Assembly (NCBI GenBank): GCA_035557635.1
Contig: DATMDR010000061.1
Span: forward strand, 44,730-108,729
Origin: Solirubrobacterales bacterium
GTDB taxonomy: Bacteria; Actinomycetota; Thermoleophilia; Solirubrobacterales; 70-9
DNA: 64,000 nt
Direction: 5' to 3'
A program made the position numbers and the translations under genes. Under the pieces are notes generated by a model. It worked only from the letters and a program-made list of their open reading frames with translations, was not told where the DNA came from and made no database searches. Shown here piece after piece: positions 11,349-29,572 of the stretch (position 1 is its first letter; each line of letters starts with the position of its first letter).

Positions 11349-12068
11349 TTATCCGACAGCGAGCTGACTTCCAAACGGAGGAGGCCTTCGGTCGATTTGC
11401 ACCCCAAAGTCCCAGAACTCAGTTCCCGACCACAGTACGGTCGTGCTCTGCTCCTGATAAGAGACTTCATAGCTCACTCGGCGGACTCTACCTTGATCAT
11501 CAATCCAGGTGAGTACCTGGATTGAGGCGCTTAGACCTCCTAGCCCATCATCCGCATACGGTGCAATCTCGCTCCATGCAGACCCTTGAAACTGACCTGG
11601 ATAAAGCACTGACTGATAGCAAGAAGTAGCGCTTCCACGAATCAATACATCATGCTCTGGCAATCGAGACATATCGTCTACCGAAGCTAGGGGTCCAAAT
11701 ATAAAAAGCGGATTTCTGGTGGGCCGGAGATCGGACACCTCTCCACTTTGCTCACCCCATTCTCCGTCCTTACCCAAAAGCCATTGGGCTCCCCCCTCGA
11801 AGTAGAGTTCTTGTCCACTCCCAACGATTCGGTCCGCGAGCCCGTATAGAAGTCGATAGACCGGGCGGGTCAGCTTAGAGCTGTCCTTCGCACGGTCGTT
11901 GACCATTCGCCTCGAAAACAGGCGATCATGCATCCAAATCCGATCCTGGTCGAAGTCAACGAGGCCTTCGCCTCTTCTATCTATTGGCTCCGGCACTGGA
12001 TTGCCTATGCGCGCGAACACAGACAACTGAGCACTCGCGGCGCTCAGCGTCTCATCAACCACACGCAA
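11349..12068 (-). CDS. hypothetical protein immediately downstream of the RHS toxin (candidate immunity protein)
   Basis: 239 aa, no signal peptide or TM helix. Starts 52 nt after the RHS stop on the same strand. Function assigned from position only. Confidence 0.5.
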   Translation of the reverse strand: MRVVDETLSAASAQLSVFARIGNPVPEPIDRRGEGLVDFDQDRIWMHDRLFSRRMVNDRAKDSSKLTRPVYRLLYGLADRIVGSGQELYFEGGAQWLLGKDGEWGEQSGEVSDLRPTRNPLFIFGPLASVDDMSRLPEHDVLIRGSATSCYQSVLYPGQFQGSAWSEIAPYADDGLGGLSASIQVLTWIDDQGRVRRVSYEVSYQEQSTTVLWSGTEFWDFGVQIDRRPPPFGSQLAVG

Positions 12069-12120: not shown

Positions 12121-15100
12121 CTAGCGGCTCACTGGTAGAACTGGCGTTTCTTCCAGCTGAGCCCTTACTCGATTAAGTAGATCCTTGAGGCTTGGACTTC
12201 GGTGTGGCTGTGCCGCCGTGGGCGGTGGATTCGGTGGAGGCGGCGACATCGTTGGGCCGTTGCCAGTAATGCAGCTGAAACCACACACGGCAAGGTCCCA
12301 CAGATTACAGAAATCAGCAAAGCATGAACCAAGTGAAACGATACCTTTACTCGCAGCGAGGCAGTGCTGAATCTTTGTGTACTTCATCGCTACGTTGCGT
12401 GCAGTGCAATGCCTTCTAATGCAAGTCCTGAGACACTGCACAATGCCTTCCCTCGGCCTAGTCGAGCATCCCGTTAGATCGAGCTGGTTTAGCGGATCTT
12501 GGTTCGCATAATCATATGAATTGGCCGAACCGCCCAAGACCCGATCAAGCGATGTAAAGCGACCCATCGCTGGAACATAGGTTCGAACGCCCATTTGAAC
12601 TATCCCCGAAGCAAACTCCGTCCGTCGCTGATGACTCCCGAGCCAACCATATCTTTTGGCTTCGCCTTTCGGTTTGCCGAACTCGTCGGACTCAAAGGTT
12701 GCTAGCAGTTTGGTGGCTTCTGGATCGAGGCTAGCCGTCGCAACGATGTCGCCATGCATGTTTGCCAACTGAAGAATCGTGCCCTGAGCGCTATCGTGCA
12801 GTGCCACCAGTTCTCCCCCAATTCCACTGATGGTGCGCGACCAGTTTGACCCCTGATCGATCCAAACTGGAGCGTCGGTACTGTTGGCGTAGTGATATAT
12901 TTCGGTACCCGATTTGGTGCCTGTTTGGACCCGTTGACGCTGTCGCAGGGATGCGTCGAGGTCGTAGGTGTTGGTGATTCCGTCCTGGGTCTGGCTGCGG
13001 ATCAGGTCGCTGCTGTAGTAGGTCGAGGTCAGCGTTCCCCCGCCTGAAAAGGCTTTGGGGAGCGTCGTGATCCTGCCGAAGTCGTCGTAGGCGATTTCAG
13101 TGCCGAGCAGGCGGTCTCCGGTGTCGTATTTGTATTCTTGGACGTTGCCTTTCGAGCTGATGTCGCAGGCGCCTTCAATGCCAGGTTCCCGCGTGATGAG
13201 AGCGGTGCGATTGGAGTTGGCATCGTAGTTGTAGGTGCGGGTCGTACACGAGCCGCCCTGCGGAGTGTCCTTGACCAGAGTGAGGCGACCTGCTTTGTCA
13301 TAGGAATATTGCTGAGAAGACAAGGCCGAGGTTTGACTGAGCCACTGCCCATGAATCGACCTCTCAACCTCGAAGTCGAGCCATGTACATTCGGAGACGC
13401 AATTCGTCGTCTTCTCGTAGGCTAGGTGGACGGACGCACCAGTCTCGTCGTAAGTGGTGGTTGCCGTGAGGCCGTTCGGGAAGTCCCGTTCGACCAAGTT
13501 GCCGTCGGCGTCATAGGTCGCGGTGAAGGTTCCTGCTGCGGAATCGTTCAGCTGCACGAGCAGGCCCGAGGTCGGGTCATAGGTGCGGGTCTGCACGCCC
13601 TTGCCATCGCTGGATATCACCGGGCGACTGAGCAAGTCATAGCCGGTGCTCGAGAGATTGCCGTCGGCGTCTTCGTAGCTGATCGGTCGCCCGAGCGTGT
13701 CGTAGACGGTCCTCGTCGCCTGGCGGTCGTAGCTGCTGGAGAGAACCCACTTCTGGATCCGGTCGTTGCCGGCGTCTGAGACCCAGACGTTGCCTGCTGA
13801 ATCAGCCGCGAGCCCTGATGGCCAGGTCAGGCTGAACTGGCCCTGGCCTGAGCCTGGCGCGCCGAACTTGGCGACGTATTTCCCCTCGGTGTCGAACTGC
13901 TGGACGCGACCGTTGCTCGCATCTAGGACCCAGACATTGCCTTTGGAGACCTCGACCGCATCCGGATTGATGAATTTGCCGTCGGTGTTGCCGTTGGAGC
14001 CGAACTGGAAAAGGAATTTGCCGGTCGCAGAGAAAACGCTGACGCGGTGTTTGGTCCAATCGGCGACCCAGACCTTGCCCTCGCCAACGTCAAGGCCAGC
14101 GGACTCGCCGAACTGGCCTTCGCCGGAGCCGGAGGAACCGACTGCTTTGATGAAGTTGCCTTCGGCGTCGAACTCCTGCACGCGGCCGCTGTAGTCGCTG
14201 ACCCAGAGCTCACCCTGGGCGTCGATCCCGATGCTCCTCGGCCCGTAGCCCGAGAATTTGCCATCGGTCGAGCCTAGGGAGCCGAATTCGTCTAGGTATT
14301 CTCCTTTGGTGTTGAACTTCTGGACACGGTGATTGCCCCTGTCGGCGACCCAGAGATCGCCGTTGGCATCGATCGCGATGTCCATCGGGTCACTGAGTTT
14401 GCCTTTGGCAGTCCCCAGGCCGCCGAACTCGAAGACGTAGTTCCCTGAGGAGTCGAGCTTCTGGACCCGGTTGTTGAGCCGGTCGACCACCCAGAGGTTG
14501 CCCTGGCCGTCGAAGGCGCTGCCGGCGGGATGGTTGAATTCTTTTTTGCCGGTGCCCGAGGAGCCGTAGGTGGCCGAGTAGTCGATGCTGGTTTTGCATT
14601 CGCTTTCGCAGACGAAGCGCTGGGTGGTCGGGCGGCCGGTGGCGGAGCCGTAGAGAGTCTCCGTCGTCGGGACCGCGACCCCGCCGCCTAGGCGTTTGAC
14701 CATCAGCGTCCGACCCGCTTCGTCGTAGGTCGTGATCGTCTTACGGGTCTTGGCGGGATCAGAGGTACCGCCGGGGCTTTCGATCACTTCGGTTGGCTGA
14801 CCAAGAGGGGAATAGGAGGCGTAATACGTCACTAGGAGGTCGGGTTGGCCTGCTGTTCCCGGTTGAGCCGCAGGCTTGACTTCGCAAGGCAGGCCCGTAA
14901 ACGCCGGTTTGGCATAGCACCGCGCTGGCCCCAGTGGATCATGGCCGTAGTAGACAGTCCGAGTCGATCGTGCATCCCCGCCGTTGGGATTTGCAGGCAA
15001 CCGTCTTTCGATTGGCAATCGACTCGTGTTGAAGGGGAGATACTCGATATGAGTTCGTAGTTTGAGTCCTTCCGGCTCAACTATTGTGTCGATTGGCAGA

Positions 15101-18100
15101 CGCAGGGTCCAGTTGTATTTCGTTTCCTTGACACGCTGATCTGCGTCTTTTCCTTCGCCTTTAACGCTTGCGCCAATGGTTTCCCGGGTTGGCAGATGAT
15201 ACTGAGGCGTCCCGGCAGGAGGAGGCGGTGCATTTTCGTCATCGTCATAGTTAATAGTGCGATGCCTTCGCGCCGGAACGACGGCGCCTGATTCCTCCAG
15301 GCGAGTAAGGTGCAACGGCCCCCATTCCTCGCGCAACTCGATGCCATCCGCAGAGAAGAGACGTTTAGTGTCGAGTTCTTCTGAGCGCGTGACCGATTTA
15401 GGGCCTTCCGCTAGGGCGCGTAGGCGGTTTTGAGGGCTGAGTTCACGTACGGTATTACCGTATTCGTCTGTTTCTGCTGTGGTAATTGATGGCCCCGAAG
15501 TTCCAGCGCCGGTTTCCGTGGCGGTATTGACCAGCAGACCTTCAGCATCCATGTAAAAGACGGTCGCGCGGGAGAAGCTACTGGGCGGATTTGCCGGAAC
15601 CTGATCGGGCGGAAACACGGCAGTTGCATCGACAGGAATGTCTTTCTGTCCCCATTTCGCGATGTCGGCAGCGCCCATTTCGTAGGGCGCACCGCTGCCG
15701 CTGATCGGTACCCCGTAGACGACGGTTGTCTGCGCGATGGATGGACTGCTGAGGAGGCTCGGTCGTTTGACGCTCACCAGGCGGCCATTTGCTTTCTCGC
15801 CGTCGTGGGAGCCGTATTCAAACGTCCACGGCTCCTCCCCCGGCGGCGTGATCGATTTGAGCTGCCCTGCTGCCTCGTAGGAGTAGGTCTCTTTAAGCGT
15901 TGGCGAGATCCGAGGGTCCCAAGCTTCGATGAGCCTGCCTTCTGAGTTGTATTTGTAGTTGGCTACCTGCCAGCTTTTCATCGCTGGGGTCGCACCGCTG
16001 CCAACAGCGGCGTGATATGTGATGGAGGCGAGGCGATCCCCGTAAGCTGCGGGGGCCCCCCAATTCGTCGCCGGTGCGTATTGGAACGTAAGCGTGCGAC
16101 ATCCAGGCATTACCGGGGCTTCTTTTTCCGTACATTCGTACGTCGAAGGCCCGATCACCATGATTAGCCGCCGGTTGCTGCCTTCGATTTTGTAAACCAT
16201 CCGCGTATTGTTGGCGCCGCTCCCTGTTTGAGAGACAGAGACTGGCAGATATTCAGTGCCACCGGAACTGTTTTCAAAGATCGTGCGGTTGCCATCGGGG
16301 TCAGTGAGAAAGAACTGATTTTCTTTCTTAGTCAGAAGCCAGCCGGACGCTTCGGGCGGGGAAATATAGCCGCCAGATCCATTTTGTTCGAATGCGTACT
16401 CGTCGCCGTTGAGATGGGTTAGCACAACATAGTTTTCAAGTCCTTCTATTTTTTCTTCTTCCGATACCACAATTTCACGCGCATGTCGCCATTCAGCCCC
16501 TCCTGCCGCTTCGACTGGAATGCCAGATTTCCAGCCACGGCCTAGCAGCCCGGTATCCGATGTTCCGGGATCGCGTGAGTTGTGAGTGCGAGAAAATTCC
16601 AGCGCAGTCTCAAAAACAGGAATTGAAATATCCGTCCTGCTAATGGAAAAATTTCCAGTAAGTAGATTGACAGAACCTGGGCCAACTGAGGCTGCGGCAT
16701 CCTGCGTACCACCCAAGTCGCGGTCAACTTTAGCTTCGACGGGAACGGTGTAGCCGGCAGCTGCGCCAGCACCATCCAATATCGCTCTGACCTGGATCGG
16801 GCCGCCAACTTTTTCAAGCGAGCTAGTTACGTGCGCCGCATCAAAGAAAAGCGGTGGGGTTTTCTGGCTAGCAACAACGGGAAGTGGCCATTTTTTGAGT
16901 TCTTCTCCCTGTGAATCCCGAACCAGACTAATCGGAACCGTTTGGAAGGGGCCTGTTTTCCCCTCCCTAAACTGATAGGTGACACCTGTCACGCCTGTTT
17001 CGGTCCAAGCAGCTTGGAGCTTGAGACGTCGCGCGGTCTGAGTCCCATCAGTTGGAGAAGTGACTTTGCTGGAGCTAGGAGCTTTGTCGTAATAGATAAC
17101 TTCCATGCGGGGCCGCTTGCTGGTGTCGACCGCAGCACTGGAATCGAAAGTCAGCGAGCGTTCTTTGCAAGCCGGCGAGCATTCGAGTTTCGTATCGTCG
17201 AGGAGCTTCAGCATCAAGCCCTGGTTGGGGAATAGAAGGCCGTTAACCCAGTTATCGACTAGGCTCGTCAGCCCAGGCCCGGAGAATTCCCACCAGCCCG
17301 CCTGGCCGCCGCGATCTTTGGTCAGTATCTGCGCGCCTTCGGAGGTGTAGTCGCCGCCGATCAGAGTCCACTTGAAGAGACTGCTGTACCTGTTCCAAAT
17401 CAACGTACTTTCCCAATTCTTTGTTGCCCGGCGGAGCTCGACTCCTTCCGTGTTGACGGCTGTAGCCGGCGCATGGACTTTGACCGCCGCCGCCATTATG
17501 TAGGGCTTTTTGCCGACGCCGTTGAGCGCGCTTAGATCGAACTTCAAGAGAGAGCGTGCCCATTCGTTGACGCCACTTGCCTGACGGTAGCGGGCATATA
17601 GTGCTTTTTGCCCGCCTGGACCACAGAGGCCCCAACCGTTTTTCCCTTCGAACTGTCCGGGGGGTACCCCGGGCGTTTTCGTGCCGCCAAAAGTGCAGTC
17701 GAGACTCGGGCTGTTGAGTTCGAGTGGGGGGTCGAGATGGATCGGCCAAGTCAGGTCTTCGCGCTTGAACCAGTCACCGTCGGCGTCGACCGTCAGTTCC
17801 CAGCTCTGCTCATCTACAGGCTGGAGTTCGTAATAGACGTCACGCGACACGCTCGGCTCGGGCGAGCTGTCGAGCAGCACTGGCGCTGGAATCGTGGCGA
17901 GCGACCGGTCGCTTGTGTCCCGGAACTCGATCGATCCGTCCTCGAGGAGCTTCGGGCTCAGGCCTTCCGACATCTCCAGGGCGAAGCGAAAGACGCGCGG
18001 CTCGGAGGGATCGGCGAGAACGATGTCCTCCTTGAACCCGTTGGCGAGGCTCGTCAGCTCGAACCGGGTGCCGCCGTCGGCGGTTTCGTAGCTCGCAGTG

Positions 18101-18564
18101 GCGCCTCGTACGTCTGCTGGTCTTGAAGGAGAATCCAGGAGGCGGGTCGCTATCCATCCGCCGCCGAAGCTGAGATGAACCGGCCCCTCTCCCATTCGTT
18201 CCGGCAAGGTGAGGTCGAAGGCATTGGGGCCATTGGTGAGGCCGGTGCCGTCGGATTGCTCTGCGAGGTCTTCGCCGATCGGCTTCCAGTCGCCCTCGGC
18301 ATCTCGATAGTGGATCGGGCTCTCGTAGAGGACGGTCCGAAGGGCTCCGCTGGAAAGGCGGAAGGTCTCTGAGGTCGCAGTGCGTCTTGCGTCCAGCTCG
18401 ACGCCGGTTTCTGACTCAGGCGGAGCCTCAAGCCGTTGCGAACTGCTCTCTTCTGGCTCTGCGATCACCTGTCCCGCTGACAGCGCACACAGCAGGATTG
18501 CCAATAGAACCGCCCAGCTCCCACGTCTTACCCCTCGCAGATTCTTCACTCCCCCACCTTTCAA
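12121..18564 (-). CDS. secreted RHS/YD-repeat polymorphic toxin with an internal NHL beta-propeller
   Basis: Signal peptide (WAVLLAILLCALSAGQVIA). Many YD repeats (YDxxGR/YxYDxxxR). Six NHL repeats. RHS-associated core ending YVPAMGRFTSLD...YDYANQDPLNQLDLTG. A 115-aa divergent C-terminal tail. Confidence 0.92.
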   Translation of the reverse strand: MKGGGVKNLRGVRRGSWAVLLAILLCALSAGQVIAEPEESSSQRLEAPPESETGVELDARRTATSETFRLSSGALRTVLYESPIHYRDAEGDWKPIGEDLAEQSDGTGLTNGPNAFDLTLPERMGEGPVHLSFGGGWIATRLLDSPSRPADVRGATASYETADGGTRFELTSLANGFKEDIVLADPSEPRVFRFALEMSEGLSPKLLEDGSIEFRDTSDRSLATIPAPVLLDSSPEPSVSRDVYYELQPVDEQSWELTVDADGDWFKREDLTWPIHLDPPLELNSPSLDCTFGGTKTPGVPPGQFEGKNGWGLCGPGGQKALYARYRQASGVNEWARSLLKFDLSALNGVGKKPYIMAAAVKVHAPATAVNTEGVELRRATKNWESTLIWNRYSSLFKWTLIGGDYTSEGAQILTKDRGGQAGWWEFSGPGLTSLVDNWVNGLLFPNQGLMLKLLDDTKLECSPACKERSLTFDSSAAVDTSKRPRMEVIYYDKAPSSSKVTSPTDGTQTARRLKLQAAWTETGVTGVTYQFREGKTGPFQTVPISLVRDSQGEELKKWPLPVVASQKTPPLFFDAAHVTSSLEKVGGPIQVRAILDGAGAAAGYTVPVEAKVDRDLGGTQDAAASVGPGSVNLLTGNFSISRTDISIPVFETALEFSRTHNSRDPGTSDTGLLGRGWKSGIPVEAAGGAEWRHAREIVVSEEEKIEGLENYVVLTHLNGDEYAFEQNGSGGYISPPEASGWLLTKKENQFFLTDPDGNRTIFENSSGGTEYLPVSVSQTGSGANNTRMVYKIEGSNRRLIMVIGPSTYECTEKEAPVMPGCRTLTFQYAPATNWGAPAAYGDRLASITYHAAVGSGATPAMKSWQVANYKYNSEGRLIEAWDPRISPTLKETYSYEAAGQLKSITPPGEEPWTFEYGSHDGEKANGRLVSVKRPSLLSSPSIAQTTVVYGVPISGSGAPYEMGAADIAKWGQKDIPVDATAVFPPDQVPANPPSSFSRATVFYMDAEGLLVNTATETGAGTSGPSITTAETDEYGNTVRELSPQNRLRALAEGPKSVTRSEELDTKRLFSADGIELREEWGPLHLTRLEESGAVVPARRHRTINYDDDENAPPPPAGTPQYHLPTRETIGASVKGEGKDADQRVKETKYNWTLRLPIDTIVEPEGLKLRTHIEYLPFNTSRLPIERRLPANPNGGDARSTRTVYYGHDPLGPARCYAKPAFTGLPCEVKPAAQPGTAGQPDLLVTYYASYSPLGQPTEVIESPGGTSDPAKTRKTITTYDEAGRTLMVKRLGGGVAVPTTETLYGSATGRPTTQRFVCESECKTSIDYSATYGSSGTGKKEFNHPAGSAFDGQGNLWVVDRLNNRVQKLDSSGNYVFEFGGLGTAKGKLSDPMDIAIDANGDLWVADRGNHRVQKFNTKGEYLDEFGSLGSTDGKFSGYGPRSIGIDAQGELWVSDYSGRVQEFDAEGNFIKAVGSSGSGEGQFGESAGLDVGEGKVWVADWTKHRVSVFSATGKFLFQFGSNGNTDGKFINPDAVEVSKGNVWVLDASNGRVQQFDTEGKYVAKFGAPGSGQGQFSLTWPSGLAADSAGNVWVSDAGNDRIQKWVLSSSYDRQATRTVYDTLGRPISYEDADGNLSSTGYDLLSRPVISSDGKGVQTRTYDPTSGLLVQLNDSAAGTFTATYDADGNLVERDFPNGLTATTTYDETGASVHLAYEKTTNCVSECTWLDFEVERSIHGQWLSQTSALSSQQYSYDKAGRLTLVKDTPQGGSCTTRTYNYDANSNRTALITREPGIEGACDISSKGNVQEYKYDTGDRLLGTEIAYDDFGRITTLPKAFSGGGTLTSTYYSSDLIRSQTQDGITNTYDLDASLRQRQRVQTGTKSGTEIYHYANSTDAPVWIDQGSNWSRTISGIGGELVALHDSAQGTILQLANMHGDIVATASLDPEATKLLATFESDEFGKPKGEAKRYGWLGSHQRRTEFASGIVQMGVRTYVPAMGRFTSLDRVLGGSANSYDYANQDPLNQLDLTGCSTRPREGIVQCLRTCIRRHCTARNVAMKYTKIQHCLAASKGIVSLGSCFADFCNLWDLAVCGFSCITGNGPTMSPPPPNPPPTAAQPHRSPSLKDLLNRVRAQLEETPVLPVSR
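13747..14545 (-). repeat. six tandem NHL-type repeats (coding) inside the RHS ORF
   Basis: GNLWVVDRLNNRVQKLD / GDLWVADRGNHRVQKFN / GELWVSDYSGRVQEFD / GKVWVADWTKHRVSVFS / GNVWVLDASNGRVQQFD / GNVWVSDAGNDRIQKW, spaced about 45 aa apart. Confidence 0.85.
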
Positions 18565-18578
18565 GAAATGGCTGATGC

Positions 18579-18887
18579 CTAGTTACTTAGGCCTGACAGA
18601 GCAGAAGCTGTGAAGAAACAGAGTTTCTCCCCGGCTCCACGGATTGGACGAACCTCAACCACCTCTAGGACACCTTGATCGCACAGAGTCTTCAGGTGAT
18701 AAGAGATGGCTGAGCTGGTGACCTTTTCATCTAGGACCTGCTCCAGCTGGATAGCTGACACCGGCTGTCCAATCCTTGTGATGGCTTCGAGCACTGCCAG
18801 CTTGGTTGGGCTGATCGCATGAGCCGTGAGCGCACTCCAATCCAAGCGGTTGCTCTGGCTGTGGTGACTGGTCACGTTTGGAGACAT
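18579..18887 (-). CDS. ArsR/SmtB-like winged-helix transcription regulator
   Basis: LAVLEAI...SAIQLEQVL...SSAISYHLKTLCDQGVLEVV wHTH pattern. Ends 14 nt upstream of the RHS start. Confidence 0.7.
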   Translation of the reverse strand: MSPNVTSHHSQSNRLDWSALTAHAISPTKLAVLEAITRIGQPVSAIQLEQVLDEKVTSSAISYHLKTLCDQGVLEVVEVRPIRGAGEKLCFFTASALSGLSN

Positions 18888-19074: not shown

Positions 19075-19722
19075 TCAGTCTTCTATAGACGGTGCATAAT
19101 TACGTTCCGGTCGGCCTTGTCGACATCTTGAGAAAGCCGTTGCAGTGACAATAGTTGTCGTGCCGGCCTCGCCAGATTCGCACATTCGAGTGGCCGCCCT
19201 GCCCTTTATGTCCGCCAATCGCTCATACGAGGCAGCAAGCTCATCGGCTACTTCGCGCCTTCCTTCAGCATCTAGATTCAAGGCGTCCCAGAGAAGCCAC
19301 AGATCCTCATCGGACTCCATTTTGCCGGCACGATAAGAGGCAAGCGTCTCGGTGAGAATCGACTGGATGGTGACACCGATTATGTCGTGGCGTTCCTCCA
19401 TAGTCATGGCTTGGTATGCCTCATCGGTGATGTAGGGCAGGATGACGGTCCTATAGAAGCGCTCGGTTACGTTGCCCCTTGCCACCGTCCCCGCATCTTC
19501 GATGCAGCCGGACTCGAAGAGTTCGCGGACATGGTGGCCGACGAGCTTCACGTCCTCGTCCATGATCTTGGCGAGTTCGCTACTGCTGCGCTTACCCTCA
19601 GCGAGGATCGACAGCACCTCGTTCCTAACCGGGTGTCCAAGCGCCCAGGCCACGGCCTCGTCCATCTTCTTCCGTTTGCGCTCGGCTGGCGGCTTCCGAG
19701 TTGCTGCCAGTTTCTCTGCCAA
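19075..19722 (-). CDS. wHTH (ArsR-like) protein with a helical C-terminal extension
   Basis: ALGHPVRNEVLSILAEGKRSSSELAKIM...VGHHVRELFESGCIE wHTH pattern. 215 aa. Confidence 0.65.
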   Translation of the reverse strand: MAEKLAATRKPPAERKRKKMDEAVAWALGHPVRNEVLSILAEGKRSSSELAKIMDEDVKLVGHHVRELFESGCIEDAGTVARGNVTERFYRTVILPYITDEAYQAMTMEERHDIIGVTIQSILTETLASYRAGKMESDEDLWLLWDALNLDAEGRREVADELAASYERLADIKGRAATRMCESGEAGTTTIVTATAFSRCRQGRPERNYAPSIED

Positions 19723-20065: not shown

Positions 20066-20857
20066 CTATCCAGTCTTATGGCTGGCGATGTAGATCGCCT
20101 TTGTATGGATCGCTTCGTCAAGCGGCTGCGTTGGCACGCCGTCATAGTCATGGCCGAAGATCTCGAGGATTTCCAAACCGACGCTCCGAAGCGCGGCCAG
20201 GACCTCTGCCTCGGGAAAGTGCCGCTGGCGGTGCAGGTGCGCTCTGGCGCTGCCACTGGTGTCGCCCTCGATCGCGAGGTGCGCTTCGCAGATTGACCCC
20301 GGCTCCACATCGGGGGAAGACCGGCCAGTCCAGACCATTCGCAACCCGCCCTCTTCGACGACGTGCCGCTCGGCGAAGGCGGTCCGGTAGATGTGATGGG
20401 CGTTGAGATCAAAGACCAGCAACCCACCGGGGGCGAGGTTGTCCCGCATCCCGGCTAGGGCGGCTGTCAGTTCATCGGTGCTGAGCAGGTAGTTGATCGC
20501 ATCGTCGAGCGCCCAGACGAGATCGAATGCGCCGAAGCGGGGTAGCTCACGCATGTCGGCAACCTCCAGCCGCACAGCCTCGCCAACCTTCTCGCGGGCG
20601 AGCCGCAGCATCACCGCCGACAGGTCGCAGCCGATTACCTCCCAGCCGCGATCGAGCATCGGAATGAAGCTCCTGCCGGTGCCACAGCCGACGTCGAGCA
20701 AGCGGTTCCCGGCGAGGCCACAGCGCTCTAGATGGGGTAGTAGATCGCTCAGCCACCCATCGAAATCGTTGTTTGCCGTGAAGTCGTCGTAGATCGGCGC
20801 CATCGCGTCGTAGGCGACCTCGGCATGCCTCTCCTGCATCGGGCCCGGACGACTCAT
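20066..20857 (-). CDS. class I SAM-dependent methyltransferase
   Basis: Motif I LLDVGCGTGR, then IGCDLS and LVWALDD motifs. 263 aa. Confidence 0.85.
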   Translation of the reverse strand: MSRPGPMQERHAEVAYDAMAPIYDDFTANNDFDGWLSDLLPHLERCGLAGNRLLDVGCGTGRSFIPMLDRGWEVIGCDLSAVMLRLAREKVGEAVRLEVADMRELPRFGAFDLVWALDDAINYLLSTDELTAALAGMRDNLAPGGLLVFDLNAHHIYRTAFAERHVVEEGGLRMVWTGRSSPDVEPGSICEAHLAIEGDTSGSARAHLHRQRHFPEAEVLAALRSVGLEILEIFGHDYDGVPTQPLDEAIHTKAIYIASHKTG

Positions 20858-20929: not shown

Positions 20930-23900
20930 TTAGCGGCCGATCCCCAGGTCCCGGCCGAGATCGCGCGCTCTCCCGGCGTGCTGCCCAAGGCCGAGCATGC
21001 GCTGGGTCTCTAGAAGCCGCCGCCGCGTCGCCTCTTGGCGCGCTCGCTCGGCTCCCTGCTTCGCCTCCGCGCCAAACGCTCGGAACGGGTCCTTGATGCC
21101 GTGATCCTGGCGGTAGCGCTCGATCTGCGAGAGGCCGCGATCCCAAGCCTCCCGTTTGACCGGATCGCTCGGCCTCTCCCCCAGCTCGGCCTTCACGTAG
21201 GCGGGTGGGGATATCCGCGCCGCGACGATCGCCAGCTCGCGGCGCTGCGCGAGAACCTGATTGGCGACCGCCAGCTCGCGGCGCGCGGCCCGTCCCGACT
21301 CAGGCAGCTCGCGAATCTCGGCGTCGCGACGCGCGAGCGCATCGCGCCAGTTCTTCTCCAAGGAGTCGATACGTGCCAGCTCCTCGCGGCGCTGGCGACG
21401 CGGCAGCCCCTGCGCCGCCTCGCGCTCGACCTGGATCTGGTCGAGCCGCTTCCGCGCTTCCTCAAACCGCTTCTGCACCATGCGGCGCTGGCTTTCTGCG
21501 TTGGCCTCTCGTCCTGCCGCCACCAGTAGCTCACCGCGCCTTGCGACCAGCTCCTCGGTCGGCAGGCCCGAGAACTTCGAGCGCAGCGCCTCGTCGTGGG
21601 CGGCGACCTGGGCGCGGTCGCGCTCGGCGGCTTCGGCGATGTGCGGGATGCCCTCGCGCAGGTAGGGAGACTCCGGCGCGATCTCCTCGCGGTGGACCTG
21701 TATCTCCGGCGTGGCGTAGATGAACGTCTCCTCGCGGGTGCGCGAGGCGGCGACGTATAGCTCCTGCTTGTCCATCGAAGGGTCGGCGGCGACGAATGCA
21801 CGATCGACGCTCGTGCCCTGTGCCGAGTAGGTGGTGACGGCGTAGGCGTGTTCGAGCGCCGGGGCTTCTGAGTGGCGGTTGGTCTGAGCGAGATAGTCGG
21901 CTCCGACCTCGACCCGCTTTGCCTGGTCGATGCCGTCGAGGGTCATGCGGCGCTCTGCCGCGTCCACCTCGGCAATCCGCCAGCGCTCGCGGTTGAAGAT
22001 CTCGGCGCTGCGGTCGTTGACGCGGGTGATGACGAGATCGCCGGCGGCGAAGCTCGCCTCCCCCACTTCGATCTCCTGGGCTCCGAGCTGCCCGGCCTGG
22101 CGGCGAACCTCGCGCGCCATCTCGTTCAAGCGCCTGACCTCGGCGTTCTGCTTGGCGACCATTACCGCGTCCTCGCCGCGCTCGAACGCCTCGTGCCAGT
22201 CGCGGACCATCGCCTCGCGGCGCTCCTCGGCGTTCGGGGCGACCGTGACCCTCTCGGATGAGCGGTAGAGGCTCAGCGCTTCGCCACCCTCGCCTTCCCT
22301 GATCTGCTTCGCCGCCACGCGGTCGAGCTCGTGGCGGTGGCGGATTACCTCGTCCAGTTGGATCGGGTCGGTGCGCTCGGCAAGAGCGCGGAACAGGCCG
22401 CCCGCTTCGATCTCGCCGAGCTGCTCGGGGTCGCCGACCAGGACGAGCTTCGCCTGGGCTCGCTCGGCGTGGGAGACGAGTCGAGCGAGGGTGGCCGAGT
22501 CCACCATCCCGGCCTCGTCGACCAGGAGGACCGAGCCGTGCGGCAAGCCCTCTTTGCCTTCATGCTCGGCGCGGTCGAGCGCCAAGAGCAGGCTGGCGAT
22601 GCTCGACGCCGGCAGTCCCTCCGCGCGCATCACGTTCGCCGCCCGCCAGGTCGGCGCGGCGGCGCGCAGCTCGATCCCGGCTTCGGCCCAGCCCTCAGCC
22701 GCGGCGACGACGGCGAAGGTCTTGCCGCTGCCCGCCTCGCCGATCACCACGGCGATCCCTTCGGGGTTGATGAGGAGGCGGCGGACCATCTCGCGCTGGT
22801 CGTCCTTCAAGGTCGGGCGTGTGTGAATGACACGGGCCGCGATCAGCTCGCCCGCAGGCGTCGGTCCCTGCGCCCGCATTCGCTCGACCGCCGCCAGCGC
22901 TTCGCGCTCAAGCTCCCAGATGCGCCGGGTGGTGAAGCGGGGGCCTTTGGCAGCCTCGGCGATCTGGATCACCGACTCCGACGCGAGGAAGGCGTCGGCC
23001 AGGCGCTCCACCTCGGCTCCCGGCGCACCGGATGGAAGCGAGTCGGCAACCGCCTGGATCGCGTCTCGCCTGTCGAAGTGGGACGCAGCCGCCGTGACCG
23101 CACGGTCTACCTGCTGGGTAGAGACCGTGCGGCTCACGGCGGCGCTCGGCCTCAGCGCTGCCTCCGGGTCGAAGGTGCGCTCGATCGTCTCGCGGTCAAG
23201 GCCGATCTCATCCGCCCGCGAGCGCCAGCGCCCAAGCAGCTCACCCCGGCTGACGTCTCGCTCCTTCGGCTGGCGCGTGGCAAGCGCGGCGACCTGCATC
23301 GAGCGCGCCGAGGCGTCGGCACCCGCCGCCTCGAGTATTTCCGCGCGACGGGTGGAGAAGGCGCGCAGATGCTCGTCGGCGAAGCCCGCGATCTCGGCGA
23401 TGCCCTTGCGCGTCGGTTGCCACTCGACGCCGAGGCGGCGGGTCAGCTCATGGCGCAAGTGCGCCTCGTAGATGTAGCTGGCGGTCTTGGCGTGGTCGTA
23501 GATCGCCGGGTGGTAGAGGCGGGTCCAGCGCCCGTCCGGTCCCCTAGTCGCGTTGGCGATCAGGACGTGGGTGTGGAGCTGTGGGTCGCCGTTCCGCGAG
23601 GAGCGGTGGACGTAGCCGGCGGCGAGGTAGCCATTGCCCTTGACGAACTCCGAGCCTCCCGCCCCACGCCTCGTCCAGCACGCCTCGCGCTGCATGTAGT
23701 CGAGGGCGGCTCCTACCGCTTCGCGGTGGGCGGCATTGACCTCGATGGCGGCGACCGGTCCGCCCAGGCCCCAGAGCAGGGAGACCGACTTAGGAGCCGA
23801 GAAGGTGAGATCGAAGCCGGGGACCGAGCCGTTGGCGGGGACGCCGCGCATCCCGACCAAGGGCTCGCCGTCGACCGGGCTGCGCCCGGTCAGCATCGCT

Positions 23901-24070
23901 TCGAGCTGGGCCGCCTCGACCTCCCCAGAGAGACCCAGATCCTCGGCGGCGTCGCCGAGCCATTGCCCGGCGACCTCGCCCTCGCCGGAGTAGTAGTCCT
24001 CAGCGCCTTCGGCGACCTTGTCGAGGTAGTAGCGCTCCTGGCCTTTGCCGAGCTTGCCGATGGAAAGCAT
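20930..24070 (-). CDS. MobF/TrwC-type conjugative relaxase fused to a RecD/TraA-like helicase
   Basis: N-terminus MLSIGKLGKGQERYYLD (catalytic Tyr region). His triad GDPQLHTHVLIAN. Helicase Walker A GEAGSGKT and LLVDEAGM. Start taken at ATG 24070; the track ORF extends to 24118. Confidence 0.9.
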   Translation of the reverse strand: MLSIGKLGKGQERYYLDKVAEGAEDYYSGEGEVAGQWLGDAAEDLGLSGEVEAAQLEAMLTGRSPVDGEPLVGMRGVPANGSVPGFDLTFSAPKSVSLLWGLGGPVAAIEVNAAHREAVGAALDYMQREACWTRRGAGGSEFVKGNGYLAAGYVHRSSRNGDPQLHTHVLIANATRGPDGRWTRLYHPAIYDHAKTASYIYEAHLRHELTRRLGVEWQPTRKGIAEIAGFADEHLRAFSTRRAEILEAAGADASARSMQVAALATRQPKERDVSRGELLGRWRSRADEIGLDRETIERTFDPEAALRPSAAVSRTVSTQQVDRAVTAAASHFDRRDAIQAVADSLPSGAPGAEVERLADAFLASESVIQIAEAAKGPRFTTRRIWELEREALAAVERMRAQGPTPAGELIAARVIHTRPTLKDDQREMVRRLLINPEGIAVVIGEAGSGKTFAVVAAAEGWAEAGIELRAAAPTWRAANVMRAEGLPASSIASLLLALDRAEHEGKEGLPHGSVLLVDEAGMVDSATLARLVSHAERAQAKLVLVGDPEQLGEIEAGGLFRALAERTDPIQLDEVIRHRHELDRVAAKQIREGEGGEALSLYRSSERVTVAPNAEERREAMVRDWHEAFERGEDAVMVAKQNAEVRRLNEMAREVRRQAGQLGAQEIEVGEASFAAGDLVITRVNDRSAEIFNRERWRIAEVDAAERRMTLDGIDQAKRVEVGADYLAQTNRHSEAPALEHAYAVTTYSAQGTSVDRAFVAADPSMDKQELYVAASRTREETFIYATPEIQVHREEIAPESPYLREGIPHIAEAAERDRAQVAAHDEALRSKFSGLPTEELVARRGELLVAAGREANAESQRRMVQKRFEEARKRLDQIQVEREAAQGLPRRQRREELARIDSLEKNWRDALARRDAEIRELPESGRAARRELAVANQVLAQRRELAIVAARISPPAYVKAELGERPSDPVKREAWDRGLSQIERYRQDHGIKDPFRAFGAEAKQGAERARQEATRRRLLETQRMLGLGQHAGRARDLGRDLGIGR

Positions 24071-24717
24071 CACCCTCTCTGTCCAGCGGGAGCGCGTTTT
24101 GCCTCGCACACTTAACAAAGTGATAGGGCGTGAGGGTGGTTGCTGTTGGCTGTTGGTACCGGGGCTGGAGCTTTCTCAGGGCTGCTTCTGCTGCCCCTGA
24201 GAACTGGGCTTCCTGCCTGATTCCTTCCTTTGTCTTTGTGGTTTGGCTTTGGCTGGCTGGTTGATTGGCTGCGTTTGGCTGGTTGAGTTCATCAGCCTGG
24301 GGAGGCCGACTTCGCAAAGTCCGGCGCTGGGGGGAGAGAAGCGCCGCCAGCCGGGCTAGCCTTTTTCTATGACCACCATGAAGGTGGTTAGTTAGGAGGA
24401 ATTTGGACACTTCACGATGGAAGACCAGAGAGGCATAAGAGACCATGACCGGCCACGCAAGCGAATGGCTTGCGGTGGGCCTGACCCCTTTCGTTCTCGC
24501 CGGGGCCGTGATGGCTGCGCTGTGCTTGATCGCACTTCTGCGGCGCACCCCATTCGAGGGCGAGCTTCGGGTCTTCTGGCTCCTTTGCCTAAAGCTGCGA
24601 ACGCAGCCGCCGAGGGACGACGCCTGAAGGTGTCGTTAATCTCGGGTCCGCCAGCGAAGCTGGCTGAGGATCTCATCTCTAGCGCTTGCCGGATGCCCTA
24701 GATCGGCCTGGCAGGTA

Positions 24718-27448: not shown

Positions 27449-27554
27449 CCCGGGCAGTGAGCCCGGCCATACCTGGCGGCAGATGCTCAAGCCCGAGCAA
27501 AGATGCCCGGGCAGAGCTTTCTCGCCCGGGCTATCGTAAGAGCGACGCCCGGGC
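27449..27554. promoter_or_regulatory. cluster of four CCCGGGC palindrome-containing sites upstream of the RHH/recombinase genes
   Basis: CCCGGGC at 27449-55, 27506-12, 27525-31 and 27548-54. Confidence 0.4.
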
Positions 27555-27699
27555 TTACCTGGGCCGAGATGCCGGGGCTCTTTCCAATGCAAGCGCCTGG
27601 CCGGCCGCCCCCCTACGGCCCCCCACAAGGGGGCGCACCCCGGCGCAGGGCTGCGCCCTCTTCACAAGCGCGGCGGACTGCTCTAGAACCGGGAGCTAG

Positions 27700-27966
27700 A
27701 TGCCCGCCGAGAGCCCAAAGCCGACCGCAGCATTCGCAAACCCTTGCATCGAGATCACGCCAACGCCGAAGCAGTACGAACGGCTCTGCCTCGATCTCAG
27801 GAAGCTTCGCGAGCGTGGCGCGACCTCCAACACCGACGCGATCCTCGCCGCCGTTCGAGATGCCGCCGCCCGCCGTAAGATGCCTGGCGACAAAGCAAAA
27901 GCCGGGCGGCGCGGTAACGCCCCCGGCACGGCACCAGGAGGTTCCCCTGATGCAAGAGCAGCGTAG
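27700..27966 (+). CDS. small putative ribbon-helix-helix protein (regulator/RDF candidate)
   Basis: GGGAG sits 6 nt upstream of the ATG. CIEITPTPKQYERL (strand) plus helices LRKLRERG...AILAAVRDAA. Overlaps the recombinase start by 17 nt. Confidence 0.45.
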   Translation: MPAESPKPTAAFANPCIEITPTPKQYERLCLDLRKLRERGATSNTDAILAAVRDAAARRKMPGDKAKAGRRGNAPGTAPGGSPDARAA

Positions 27967-29572
27967 CCAGCAGGCCGTTATCTACGCAGCGAAGTCCACC
28001 GAGGACAAGCACGGCAGCATCCCCGATCAGCTCGTCAAGAACCGGCGACTGGCCGACAGAGAAGACTGGTCAGTAGCCGACGAATTTTCGGACGAGGGTT
28101 TCTCCGCCTACAGCGGCAATCGAGGGCCGGGCTTGGAGGAAGCCAAGGCGCTCGCAATTGAACTCGCCGAGCTACACGGCGAGTGCTTTCTTGTCGCTCT
28201 TCACAGCGACCGGGTTGCCCGTGGAGCTGGCGACGCTCCCGGCGCCGCCGATCATCTTGTTGAGGTCGTCGCCCACTTGCGCCGCCACGGCGTGCGGCTC
28301 CGTACGGTCGAGGACGACTTCTTTGCCGACGATCGCATCGGGCTTCTCATGGCCGCAGTCCAGGGACAGCGCAACAGCGAGGACAGTCGTCGCAAGTCCG
28401 AGTCGGTTAGAGCTGGAATGAAGCGACGCGCAGAGCGCGGCTTGTTCAGCGGCCCGGCTCCTTATGGATATGACTACGCGAGCGACGGTAGCGGCCTGGT
28501 GATCGTAGATGCCGAGGCCATCGTGGTACGTCGAATCTTCACGGAGTATGTCGCGGGGCGCAGCCTGTCTGGAATCGCAGTCGGCTTGCACCGCGACGGA
28601 GTCAAGACCAAGAAAGGCTCCCTCTGGCGACAGTCAACGGTCTCAGGCATCGTTCGGAATCACGCCTACATCGGCAAGGTGACTTACCAGCGCGAAGCTT
28701 TCGATGGAGTCCATGAGCCAATCATCGACTCCGAGCTTTGGGAGCAAGCATCGCAGCTCATCGCGGCCACTCCGACTAAGCGCGGCAGACCCCCGAAGCG
28801 GAAGCGCCACCTCTTCACGCACGGATTCCTCCGGTGCGGAACCTGCGGGGAGGCGATGGTCCCGCGTACCCGGCCGGAAAGCGGCTACGAGTTCTACGAA
28901 TGCAATGGGCGAAAGCTGCACGACTGCAAAGTCGGCGCAATCAGGAGAACCGACATAGACGAAGGAGTGCTCGCGCACTTCGAGCAAACGACGCTCGACC
29001 TTGAAGCTACGCGCGCGCAGATCGTCGCCGCTATGGATCGCAATGCGACCGAGGTCGAAGCCCTGCAAGTCGCCGCAGAGCAGGAGGCACAGAAGGCAGC
29101 AGCGCGCCTCGCCAAGGTGAAGCACGATTACACCCACGGCGATCTAACGGCTGCCGAGTGGCGCGAACTAAAGTCAGAGCTTGAGCCCGAAGCCGCCGCC
29201 GCCCAGGCCGAGGCAGATCGCCTGAAAGAGCAGGTTGCCGCCGTCAAATCAAGCGCTGCACTCGGCGATGCCGAATCCGAGGTTCTAGACCAGTTGGCGC
29301 AGCTCCGCGCCGCAGTTGCCGGGAAGGTATCGGCAGCAGACAGCATCGAAGCCGTCAGGGCCGTTCTGATGCGGCTCTTTGACCGATTCATTTTCCATTC
29401 CGAGCTTCCCGCAACTGCGCACGTCGAGCTAATCGGCTATCGCTATTGGATCGAGCCAGTGATGAGCGAGCGAGCCATCGCCGGCTACGACGAGAAGATG
29501 AAGCCGGTCCTAGCGCGCCAGCCGCTTGGGCAAGCCAAAAACAATTACGGCGTCGGCTCCCCGCCGCGGTAG
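27950..29572 (+). CDS. large serine recombinase (integrase)
   Basis: AGGAGG lies 8 nt upstream of ATG 27950. Resolvase catalytic domain AVIYAAKSTEDKHGSIPDQ. Recombinase domain, Cys-rich zinc-ribbon region (CGTCG...C..C) and coiled-coil C-terminus. The last 4-5 codons and the stop lie beyond the predicted crossover. Confidence 0.9.
   Translation: MQEQRSQQAVIYAAKSTEDKHGSIPDQLVKNRRLADREDWSVADEFSDEGFSAYSGNRGPGLEEAKALAIELAELHGECFLVALHSDRVARGAGDAPGAADHLVEVVAHLRRHGVRLRTVEDDFFADDRIGLLMAAVQGQRNSEDSRRKSESVRAGMKRRAERGLFSGPAPYGYDYASDGSGLVIVDAEAIVVRRIFTEYVAGRSLSGIAVGLHRDGVKTKKGSLWRQSTVSGIVRNHAYIGKVTYQREAFDGVHEPIIDSELWEQASQLIAATPTKRGRPPKRKRHLFTHGFLRCGTCGEAMVPRTRPESGYEFYECNGRKLHDCKVGAIRRTDIDEGVLAHFEQTTLDLEATRAQIVAAMDRNATEVEALQVAAEQEAQKAAARLAKVKHDYTHGDLTAAEWRELKSELEPEAAAAQAEADRLKEQVAAVKSSAALGDAESEVLDQLAQLRAAVAGKVSAADSIEAVRAVLMRLFDRFIFHSELPATAHVELIGYRYWIEPVMSERAIAGYDEKMKPVLARQPLGQAKNNYGVGSPPR
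29528..29565. other. attR-like junction of the integrated element
   Basis: Element arm CCAAAAACAATTACGGCGTCGG, then CTC (29557-29559), then the host coding sequence resumes (CCC GCC GCG GTA = G G R Y on the minus strand). Confidence 0.6.

Follow-up and report, generated by a model that had tools for sequence, protein, structure and literature searches.

Bacterial teneurin-like proteins (TLPs) end in C-terminal domains (CTDs) that average about 15 kDa (PMC13018210, Nat Commun 2026), and an immunity gene is located directly downstream of almost all of them (PMC13018210). The CTD of the TLP from Bacillus inaquosorum (BiTLP) comprises 93 amino acids, calculated from the numbering used in the paper (shell end L2144, construct end 2237); it is hydrophobic and renders cells permeable to propidium, and its toxicity to E. 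coli depends on the presence of a signal peptide (PMC13018210). Tse5 of Pseudomonas aeruginosa is described as a pore-forming toxin that is delivered to the membrane (PMC10684867). Here, we analyzed a stretch of 64,000 nucleotides from a Solirubrobacterales bacterium (assembly GCA_035557635.1, contig DATMDR010000061.1, positions 44,730 to 108,729), hereafter called the window, which contains a teneurin-like gene of the RHS/YD polymorphic toxin type. The encoded RHS protein ends in a cysteine-rich tip, and we conclude that the tip and the product of the next gene (the partner) probably constitute a new small, non-enzymatic toxin/antidote pair within a known type of bacterial weapon. An earlier note on the same DNA had singled out the tip; the conserved tip family and the obligatory partner, with its predicted LolA/LprG fold, go beyond it. 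The coordinates of all features are collected in Table 1.

Architecture of the RHS protein

Judged by its domain content, the RHS protein belongs both to the RHS/YD polymorphic toxins and to the bacterial TLPs. Its gene ends with a TAG stop codon (12121-12123), and the domains of the product are arranged in the order signal peptide, DNRLRE, DUF6531 (FN-plug-like), NHL propeller, YD shell, RHS core and tip, with the combination of FN-plug, NHL propeller and YD shell that defines the TLP superfold. The N-terminal signal peptide is of the Sec type and was called by eye (MKGGGVKNLRGVRRGSWAVLLAILLCALSAGQVIA/EPEE; ...ALSAGQVIA/EPEE). Searches against Pfam matched NHL (9.9e-31, in five scored stretches, where the earlier note had counted six blades), RHS_repeat (PF05593; 2.8e-18, in 6 stretches) and DUF6531 (2.6e-09, residues 631-681), and NCBIfam matched DNRLRE (9e-15) and TIGR01643 (5.8e-11).

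The RHS-associated core scores 40.6 bits with TIGR03696 (cut-off 32.5) on residues 1969-2032, and the match stops exactly at ...YDYANQDPLNQLDLTG. Putative residues of an aspartyl autoprotease are R1994 (12583-12585), D2007 (12544-12546) and D2029 (12478-12480). The spacing between R1994 and D2007 is 13 residues, as it is between R2103 and D2116 of BiTLP, whose structure was determined by cryo-EM (PMC13018210). The motif at the junction with the tip is DRVL...DLTG, not DPxG...DPxGL.

The mature shell (1997 residues) holds 14 cysteines, which are arranged as seven local pairs. Elsewhere in the same genome (G000:C46:46739-47843; L022/L023), a VKOR gene adjoins a gene for a DsbA-like thioredoxin-fold protein, an oxidative folding pair of the actinobacterial type. 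Both the paired cysteines of the shell and the VKOR/DsbA-like genes speak for exported proteins that fold under oxidizing conditions.

The RHS gene is collinear with that of the related locus L014 (71-78% nucleotide identity), but a segment of ~930 nucleotides that codes for the NHL propeller is present in the window only. This segment spans about 13700-14640, or amino acids 1310-1620 approximately. Going by this alignment, the NHL propeller seems to behave as an insertion/deletion module, and its presence is independent of the tip subfamily (see below). At two further loci, the RHS gene is split into two open reading frames (ORFs), either by a frameshift or by an assembly error (L015:2454-7969, 1392 + 417 amino acids; L025:1376-6966, 1435 + 428 amino acids); the tip and the partner are intact at both.

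A conserved family of cysteine-rich tips

The last 115 residues had been read in the earlier note as a swapped polymorphic tip placed directly after the RHS core, and this reading holds. The TIGR03696 match stops at residue 2032, and a word-seeded search with residues 1960-2147 returned 89 RHS relatives (P0002-P0090), which have ...DPxNxxDLxG in common and beyond it diverge into tips that are unrelated. The match extends across the cysteine-rich part in five of these relatives. An exhaustive phmmer search with the tip against 1.84 billion representatives gave seven hits, of which two are genuine and both are RHS C-termini (P0092, P0097); the other five are repeat or low-complexity proteins and were rejected. 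Five more tip-bearing loci were reached by tracing the downstream partner gene, which brings the total to 13 distinct tips.

The 13 tips are 91-115 amino acids long, and each begins directly after ...D(L/I)xG. Their common layout is C-x3-C-x4-C ... C ... C-x4-C-x7-C-x3-C, followed by a Pro-rich linker and a hydrophobic end, which consists either of a short helix with IPLG, VAFG or PVSR or of a long (hydrophobic-Pro)n tail. Eight cysteines and Phe53 are invariant; the first cysteine, directly after DLTG, is not. In the window, the cysteines occupy tip positions 1, 12, 16, 21, 36, 49, 54, 62 and 66, which confirms the count of nine in 66 residues given in the earlier note, and measured against the cysteine density of the mature shell (14/1997) the binomial P for this enrichment is about 1e-9. 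The Pro-rich linker and the charged tail that had been described behind the cysteines are present as claimed.

Polar residues are not conserved to the same degree, and none is invariant among the 13 tips. Thr takes the place of Lys32 in L002, and position 35 has Gln in L014 and Arg in L025 instead of His; a role of His35 in binding a metal or in catalysis was therefore rejected. Cys-to-His exchanges do not occur. Because the family lacks conserved polar residues, catalysis by the tip is unlikely.

The tip of L014 is 80% identical to that of the window, and the ratio of nonsynonymous to synonymous substitution rates (dN/dS) between the two is about 0.17 for the entire tip and 0.10 for the cysteine-rich part, in an ungapped comparison that has the first six codons one position off register. 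We conclude that the tip represents a genuine, conserved and previously unnamed family under purifying selection. Nothing but the shortness of the tip and its missing annotation would suggest a degraded remnant or a chance cysteine-rich frame. The 13 homologues of the same length, the invariant cysteines, the dN/dS of 0.17 and the binomial P of about 1e-9 effectively rule out this explanation, which we regard as extremely improbable. Longer intact homologues, which the earlier note had named as the mark of a remnant, were not found.

A profile search for free-standing tip-like proteins of 63-200 amino acids gave none, so that we know the domain solely as cargo of RHS proteins; the genome from which the window is taken contains a single copy. 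We considered the sequence LTGC at the start of the tip as a lipobox and dropped the idea, because the motif is internal, is not preceded by a signal peptide, and contains the one tip cysteine (Cys1) that is not invariant.

Comparison of the tip with domain libraries

As far as Pfam-A, NCBIfam and sequence profiles of the PDB extend, the tip is outside every catalogued toxin domain family, in agreement with the earlier note, which had recognized no toxin motif. Pfam and NCBIfam yielded no family at E ≤ 1 for the tip of the window, a Pfam search with 12 tips at E ≤ 10 gave noise only, and the best match in a sequence-profile search of the PDB had E = 0.89. A CFEM-type helical domain with eight cysteines was rejected, since PF05730 matches two of the 12 tips, and these at E = 6 only; the likeness stops at eight cysteines in about 60 helical residues. 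A tip of the Lipocone type (PMC12419801) was considered as well and has no support from sequence, as no Pfam family matched, including Wnt, SAA and VanZ, or from conserved residues, as there is no invariant polar residue; at the level of the fold, comparison with the five-helix Min-Wnt core rests on a low-confidence model of the tip. This single-sequence AlphaFold model (pLDDT 60.8) has helices at tip residues 6-20, 30-39, 43-50 and 56-68. A Foldseek search with it against the PDB, one of the checks proposed earlier, gave no significant match (best E 2.1). The view of the tip as a disulfide-rich mini-protein, which had been put forward in the earlier note, is the most sensible one, with putative disulfides between the conserved cysteines.

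Two further statements of that note stood in part. The tip had been called far shorter than typical enzymatic RHS toxin domains, which is correct in comparison with Rhs enzymes of type VI secretion (T6SS) only; within the clade, the tips of the 89 relatives are 93-171 amino acids long, with a median of 136. The drop in GC content that had been noticed is real, with 0.54 for the tip (0.505 for its cysteine-rich part) against 0.586 for the RHS body. It is modest, however, as 13.5% of the RHS-body segments of tip size have a GC content as low as that of the tip. The operon as a whole is lower in GC content than the host flanks (0.68).

The cysteine counts of the 89 tips are almost always even, with four cysteines in most and six in many. 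A C-terminal cysteine ends 29 of the 89 tips, and many have a cysteine at most four residues from the DLxG junction. This pattern suggests that disulfide-closed tips are a design found throughout the clade. By length and cysteine content, the tip in the window is the short and cysteine-richest extreme of a clade whose tips are normally small and presumably disulfide-paired. Small tips with paired cysteines would be the rule in this uncultured clade, and short tips are not anomalies.

Two other RHS genes of the same genome bear different tips. One of them (L012; G000:C48, about 15184-18378) codes for a tip of 135 amino acids that ends in ...ASKAGAC. Downstream of it are at least two fragments that resemble tip ends (...EKAGVC and ...ASKAGAC) and small hydrophobic ORFs resembling 2-TM proteins (proteins with two transmembrane (TM) segments), and the locus looks like an array of orphan tips and immunity genes.

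The downstream partner and its predicted fold

A partner gene coding for about 220-256 amino acids lies directly past the RHS stop codon in all 11 tip-bearing loci with DNA, namely the window, L001-L005, L007, L008, L014, L015 and L025. The alignment indicates TTG at 12068 as the likely start in the window, with a conserved segment at 11934-12068. Public gene calls of 194 amino acids (P0100, P0101) start at an internal ATG and omit 45 conserved N-terminal residues, and with them the strands at the beginning of the predicted fold. None of the aligned partner sequences has a signal peptide, a hydrophobic N-terminus or a lipobox.

By sequence, the partner matches no Pfam family at E ≤ 10 and no PDB entry. 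An AlphaFold model based on a 13-sequence alignment (pLDDT 86.7, pTM 0.84) gave Foldseek matches to LprG (3mh9, E = 1e-7) and LppX (2byo, E = 5.5e-7, TM-scores 0.51/0.65), and further matches to LprF, RseB, VioE and LolA. The E-values of these matches lie between 1e-7 and 1e-5 and their TM-scores between 0.5 and 0.65, in alignments of about 240 columns. On the strength of the model, we are confident that the partner has the LprG/LppX/LolA-like half-barrel fold that carries acyl chains.

Sequence identity of the partner follows the tip subfamily, with 36-72% in the helix-tail group and 23-31% in the Pro-tail group. The partners of the Pro-tail group (L004, L005, L007 and L008) have a cysteine at residue 3-5 (MMKC, MNVC, MRVC and MGTC), again without a signal peptide. 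The partner is rare, as a search of 400 further genomes of the class gave a single strong hit. An orphan copy is found in L006 (L006:8001-8937; GCA_009772315.1, WNFM01302855.1) together with a truncated small-TM gene and without an adjoining tip-bearing RHS gene; it lies about 950 nucleotides from a TrwC relaxase gene, and an RHS gene 6 kb upstream has an unrelated tip. A diverged stand-alone copy in a related genome (L017; G119:C1:1531601-1532392; E = 4.7e-39) is chromosomal and follows a RecN-like gene; an RHS gene is absent. As gene arrangements, the orphan copy in L006 and the stand-alone copy in G119 fit an immunity role of the partner.

The partner gene is followed in nine of the 11 loci by a gene for a small 2-TM protein of 55-80 amino acids, which has a conserved, amphipathic C-terminal tail on the cytoplasmic side. 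Comparison of this protein with Pfam gave noise only, for instance a match of two of six members to actinobacterial holin-X at E = 0.026.

Proposed mode of action

We hypothesize, at roughly even chances, that the tip is a non-enzymatic toxin, stabilized by disulfides, whose site of action is the neighbouring cell's membrane, and that the LolA-fold partner neutralizes it from the cytoplasmic face, usually together with the 2-TM protein. In this model, the teneurin-like RHS protein would be exported by the Sec pathway and carry the tip as cargo. By analogy with characterized systems, the RHS aspartyl protease (R1994, D2007 and D2029) would cut at, or one residue past, ...DLTG, and the resulting fragment of about 114 amino acids would be kept inside the YD shell. 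If the DPxGL| rule holds for this junction, Cys2033 would stay with the shell, and the released fragment would contain exactly the eight invariant cysteines. These eight residues would form four disulfides in the 55-residue core, which is expected to be a small, cationic, helical domain with the Pro-rich linker and the hydrophobic tail behind it.

The cysteine-rich core is basic (isoelectric point 8.2-9.1), with a cationic N-terminal half and a hydrophobic C-terminal half. The tip would most likely act by binding or insertion and not by catalysis. Our best guess for the site of action is the cytoplasmic membrane of the neighbouring cell, or lipid-linked intermediates, because of the cationic and hydrophobic halves of the core, the lipid-binding fold predicted for the partner, and the 2-TM companion. 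The partner would be the cognate immunity protein, located in the cytoplasm and with a fold suited to a lipid or another hydrophobic ligand, and in most loci the cytoplasmic tail of the 2-TM protein could tether it to the membrane. Because the partner has no signal peptide, neutralization would have to occur from the inner face, in analogy to the immunity proteins of class IIa bacteriocins.

The cationic, disulfide-rich nature of the mini-protein and the lipid-binding fold of the partner would also be compatible with a defensin-like toxin, which binds a lipid-linked precursor of the cell wall (of the type of lipid II or undecaprenyl-phosphate) on the outside of the membrane, with a partner that protects by handling the same lipid. 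Tips that target lipid head groups, and that have membrane or periplasmic immunity proteins, have been described (PMC12419801). However, the tip has no sequence match to any such family, the partner appears to be cytoplasmic, and there is no conserved polar residue for binding, which makes a defensin-like mechanism rather improbable.

Several observations weigh against our hypothesis of action at the membrane. A segment with the hydropathy of a TM helix was sought in the tip and not found, the highest 19-residue Kyte-Doolittle mean being 1.35 where about 1.6 is usual, and a simple pore-former is therefore disfavoured. The 2-TM gene is missing in two of the 11 loci (L008 and L025). Since the partner lacks a signal peptide, extracellular action of the tip requires the assumption that neutralization takes place at the inner face. 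Finally, the helical four-disulfide fold of the tip is a prediction from a low-confidence model.

Some of these observations would fit an alternative mechanism, in which the tip acts in the cytoplasm of the target cell, with its disulfides reduced or its cysteines bound to zinc, and blocks an essential target stoichiometrically. The LolA-fold protein would then be a 1:1 immunity protein, and the 2-TM protein an accessory that could, for example, block entry. An invariably linked partner without a signal peptide in the canonical position of an immunity gene argues for this mechanism, as do the dispensability of the 2-TM gene in L008 and L025 and the absence of a TM-grade hydrophobic segment from the tip. 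Sec-exported RHS toxins of monoderm bacteria that hit cytoplasmic targets are known, the WapA tRNases of B. subtilis being an example. In contrast, the eight invariant cysteines of an exported protein, encoded in a genome that has VKOR and DsbA, point to an extracellular fold; the lack of Cys-to-His exchanges and the variability of His35 speak against a zinc site; and the predicted partner fold binds lipids or acyl chains and is not typical of an inhibitor. We consider cytoplasmic action unlikely, although far from negligible.

Toxicity of the tip is something that we infer, and the tip could instead be a structural, tethering or adhesion module of the RHS protein at the surface, in which case the LolA-fold protein might serve in the cytoplasm as an export chaperone, covering the hydrophobic tail ahead of transport by Sec. 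Hydrophobic tails and shielding chaperones are known for Rhs effectors of the T6SS, where Eag chaperones have this function. In BiTLP, a disulfide tethers the CTD to the N-terminal fragment (PMC13018210). Nevertheless, the tip occupies the position that is the hypervariable toxin slot in the 89 relatives, and the other RHS loci of the genome have different tips, with orphan fragments and small TM ORFs at L012 that are typical of a toxin-immunity array. The orphan and stand-alone copies of the partner, which occur without an RHS gene, are also difficult to reconcile with an export chaperone, and we regard a non-toxin function as improbable.

Building on the hypothesis of a membrane-directed toxin, we speculate, tentatively, that a helical mini-protein with four disulfides and no catalytic residues kills monoderm actinobacteria at the level of the membrane or of lipid carriers, and that a two-part complex, with the cytoplasmic LolA/LprG-fold protein docked to the 2-TM protein, confers immunity. 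The tip would then stand for a class of RHS-delivered toxins not recognized before, and the partner for the first case in which this lipid-carrier fold has an immunity role.

Genomic context

From the genes that surround it, the RHS operon is cargo of an integrative mobilizable element. A regulator gene of the ArsR/HTH_20 type precedes the RHS gene, and a second one, a methyltransferase gene, a TrwC relaxase-helicase gene and a gene for a large serine recombinase lie further away (Table 1). Genes resembling this HTH_20 regulator are found ahead of the RHS gene in L002, L004, L005 and L007, and genes for a relaxase, a coupling protein, an integrase or insertion sequences also adjoin related loci. 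A scan for promoters and terminators gave no usable signal.

Table 1. Coordinates of the RHS operon, the parts of its product and the neighbouring genes in the window.
Feature	Coordinates	Strand	Remarks
Two-TM protein gene, 78 amino acids	11109..11345	minus	3 nucleotides past partner gene; candidate membrane subunit of immunity module
Partner gene, 239 amino acids	11349..12068	minus	TTG start 12068, 52 nucleotides past RHS stop; candidate immunity protein
Teneurin-like RHS/YD polymorphic toxin gene, 2147 amino acids	12121..18564	minus	TTG start; ORF open throughout
Polymorphic tip, 115 amino acids, residues 2033-2147	12124..12468	minus	follows RHS core
C-terminal tail of tip	12124..12192	minus	short amphipathic helix, then hydrophobic/Pro end (...ETPVLPVSR)
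Pro-rich linker of tip (ITGNGPTMSPPPPNPPPTAAQPHRSP)	12193..12270	minus	Pro-rich segment found in all family members
Cysteine-rich core of tip, 55 amino acids	12271..12435	minus	C-x3-C-x4-C-x14-C-x12-C-x4-C-x7-C-x3-C; helical by prediction
RHS-associated core, residues 1969-2032	12469..12660	minus	TIGR03696; ends at DLTG
ArsR/HTH_20-type regulator gene	18579..18887	minus	ends 14 nucleotides before RHS start
Second ArsR/HTH_20 gene	19075-19722		
Methyltransferase gene	20066-20857		
TrwC relaxase-helicase gene	20930-24118		
Large serine recombinase gene	27503-29572		

Comparison with known systems

The closest described system is BiTLP, which has in common with the protein of the window the export by Sec, the superfold of FN-plug/DUF6531, NHL propeller and YD shell, the R/D/D motif at the end of the core, the small CTD, which is presumably enclosed in the shell here as well, and the gene downstream. 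The CTD of BiTLP is not an enzyme and exerts its effect on the membrane from the outside. It has a predicted TM segment, whereas the tip in the window has none and has eight invariant cysteines instead, and the sequences of the two CTDs are dissimilar. Unlike in BiTLP, the downstream module consists here of a protein with a predicted LolA/LprG fold and, usually, a 2-TM protein.

The locus also resembles the Rhs/WapA/Tc-type toxins (Zhang et al. 2012, PMC3482391) in its YD shell, core, hypervariable tip and linked downstream gene, as well as in the diversity of tips among paralogues, the orphan modules and the carriage by a mobile element. Most characterized tips of these toxins are enzymes of 130-300 amino acids (nucleases, deaminases, ADP-ribosyltransferases and NADases) with invariant catalytic residues; in contrast, the tip described here has a core of 55 amino acids and no invariant polar residue. 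Tse5-CT (PMC10684867) is a membrane-targeting cargo without enzymatic function that is encapsulated by an Rhs protein, as we propose for the tip. Tse5 differs in that it is delivered by the T6SS in a diderm organism; the tip in the window lacks a TM-grade stretch, and we saw no homology to Tse5-CT.

The partner has the predicted fold in common with LprG, LppX and LprF and with LolA and RseB, but the sequence signature of these families, the signal peptide and the lipobox are absent. Because it has neither a signal peptide nor a lipobox, the partner is expected to be a cytoplasmic protein and not a lipoprotein of the cell envelope. In the literature searched, we found no description of a LolA/LprG fold as the immunity protein of a polymorphic toxin.

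A functional analogy can be drawn with the class IIa (pediocin-like) bacteriocins, which are small, cationic, disulfide-containing peptides that act on the membrane from outside and are neutralized at the inner face by a cytoplasmic immunity protein. The analogy is functional only, as the folds are unrelated and class IIa bacteriocins are free peptides with leaders, not RHS cargo.

The locus is thus a well-known kind of system that contains a new tip family and an unusual, firmly supported partner fold. Whereas RHS and teneurin-like toxins are known mostly for enzymatic cargo, the family described here adds a tiny, cysteine-locked and apparently non-catalytic one, and in the unannotated partner a lipid-carrier fold would have been relocated to the cytoplasm. 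Should the proposed mode of action be correct, monoderm soil actinobacteria would deliver bacteriocin-like mini-proteins by means of exported YD shells, the tip would offer a compact, disulfide-stabilized antibacterial scaffold, and the LolA/LprG fold would gain a role as an antidote.

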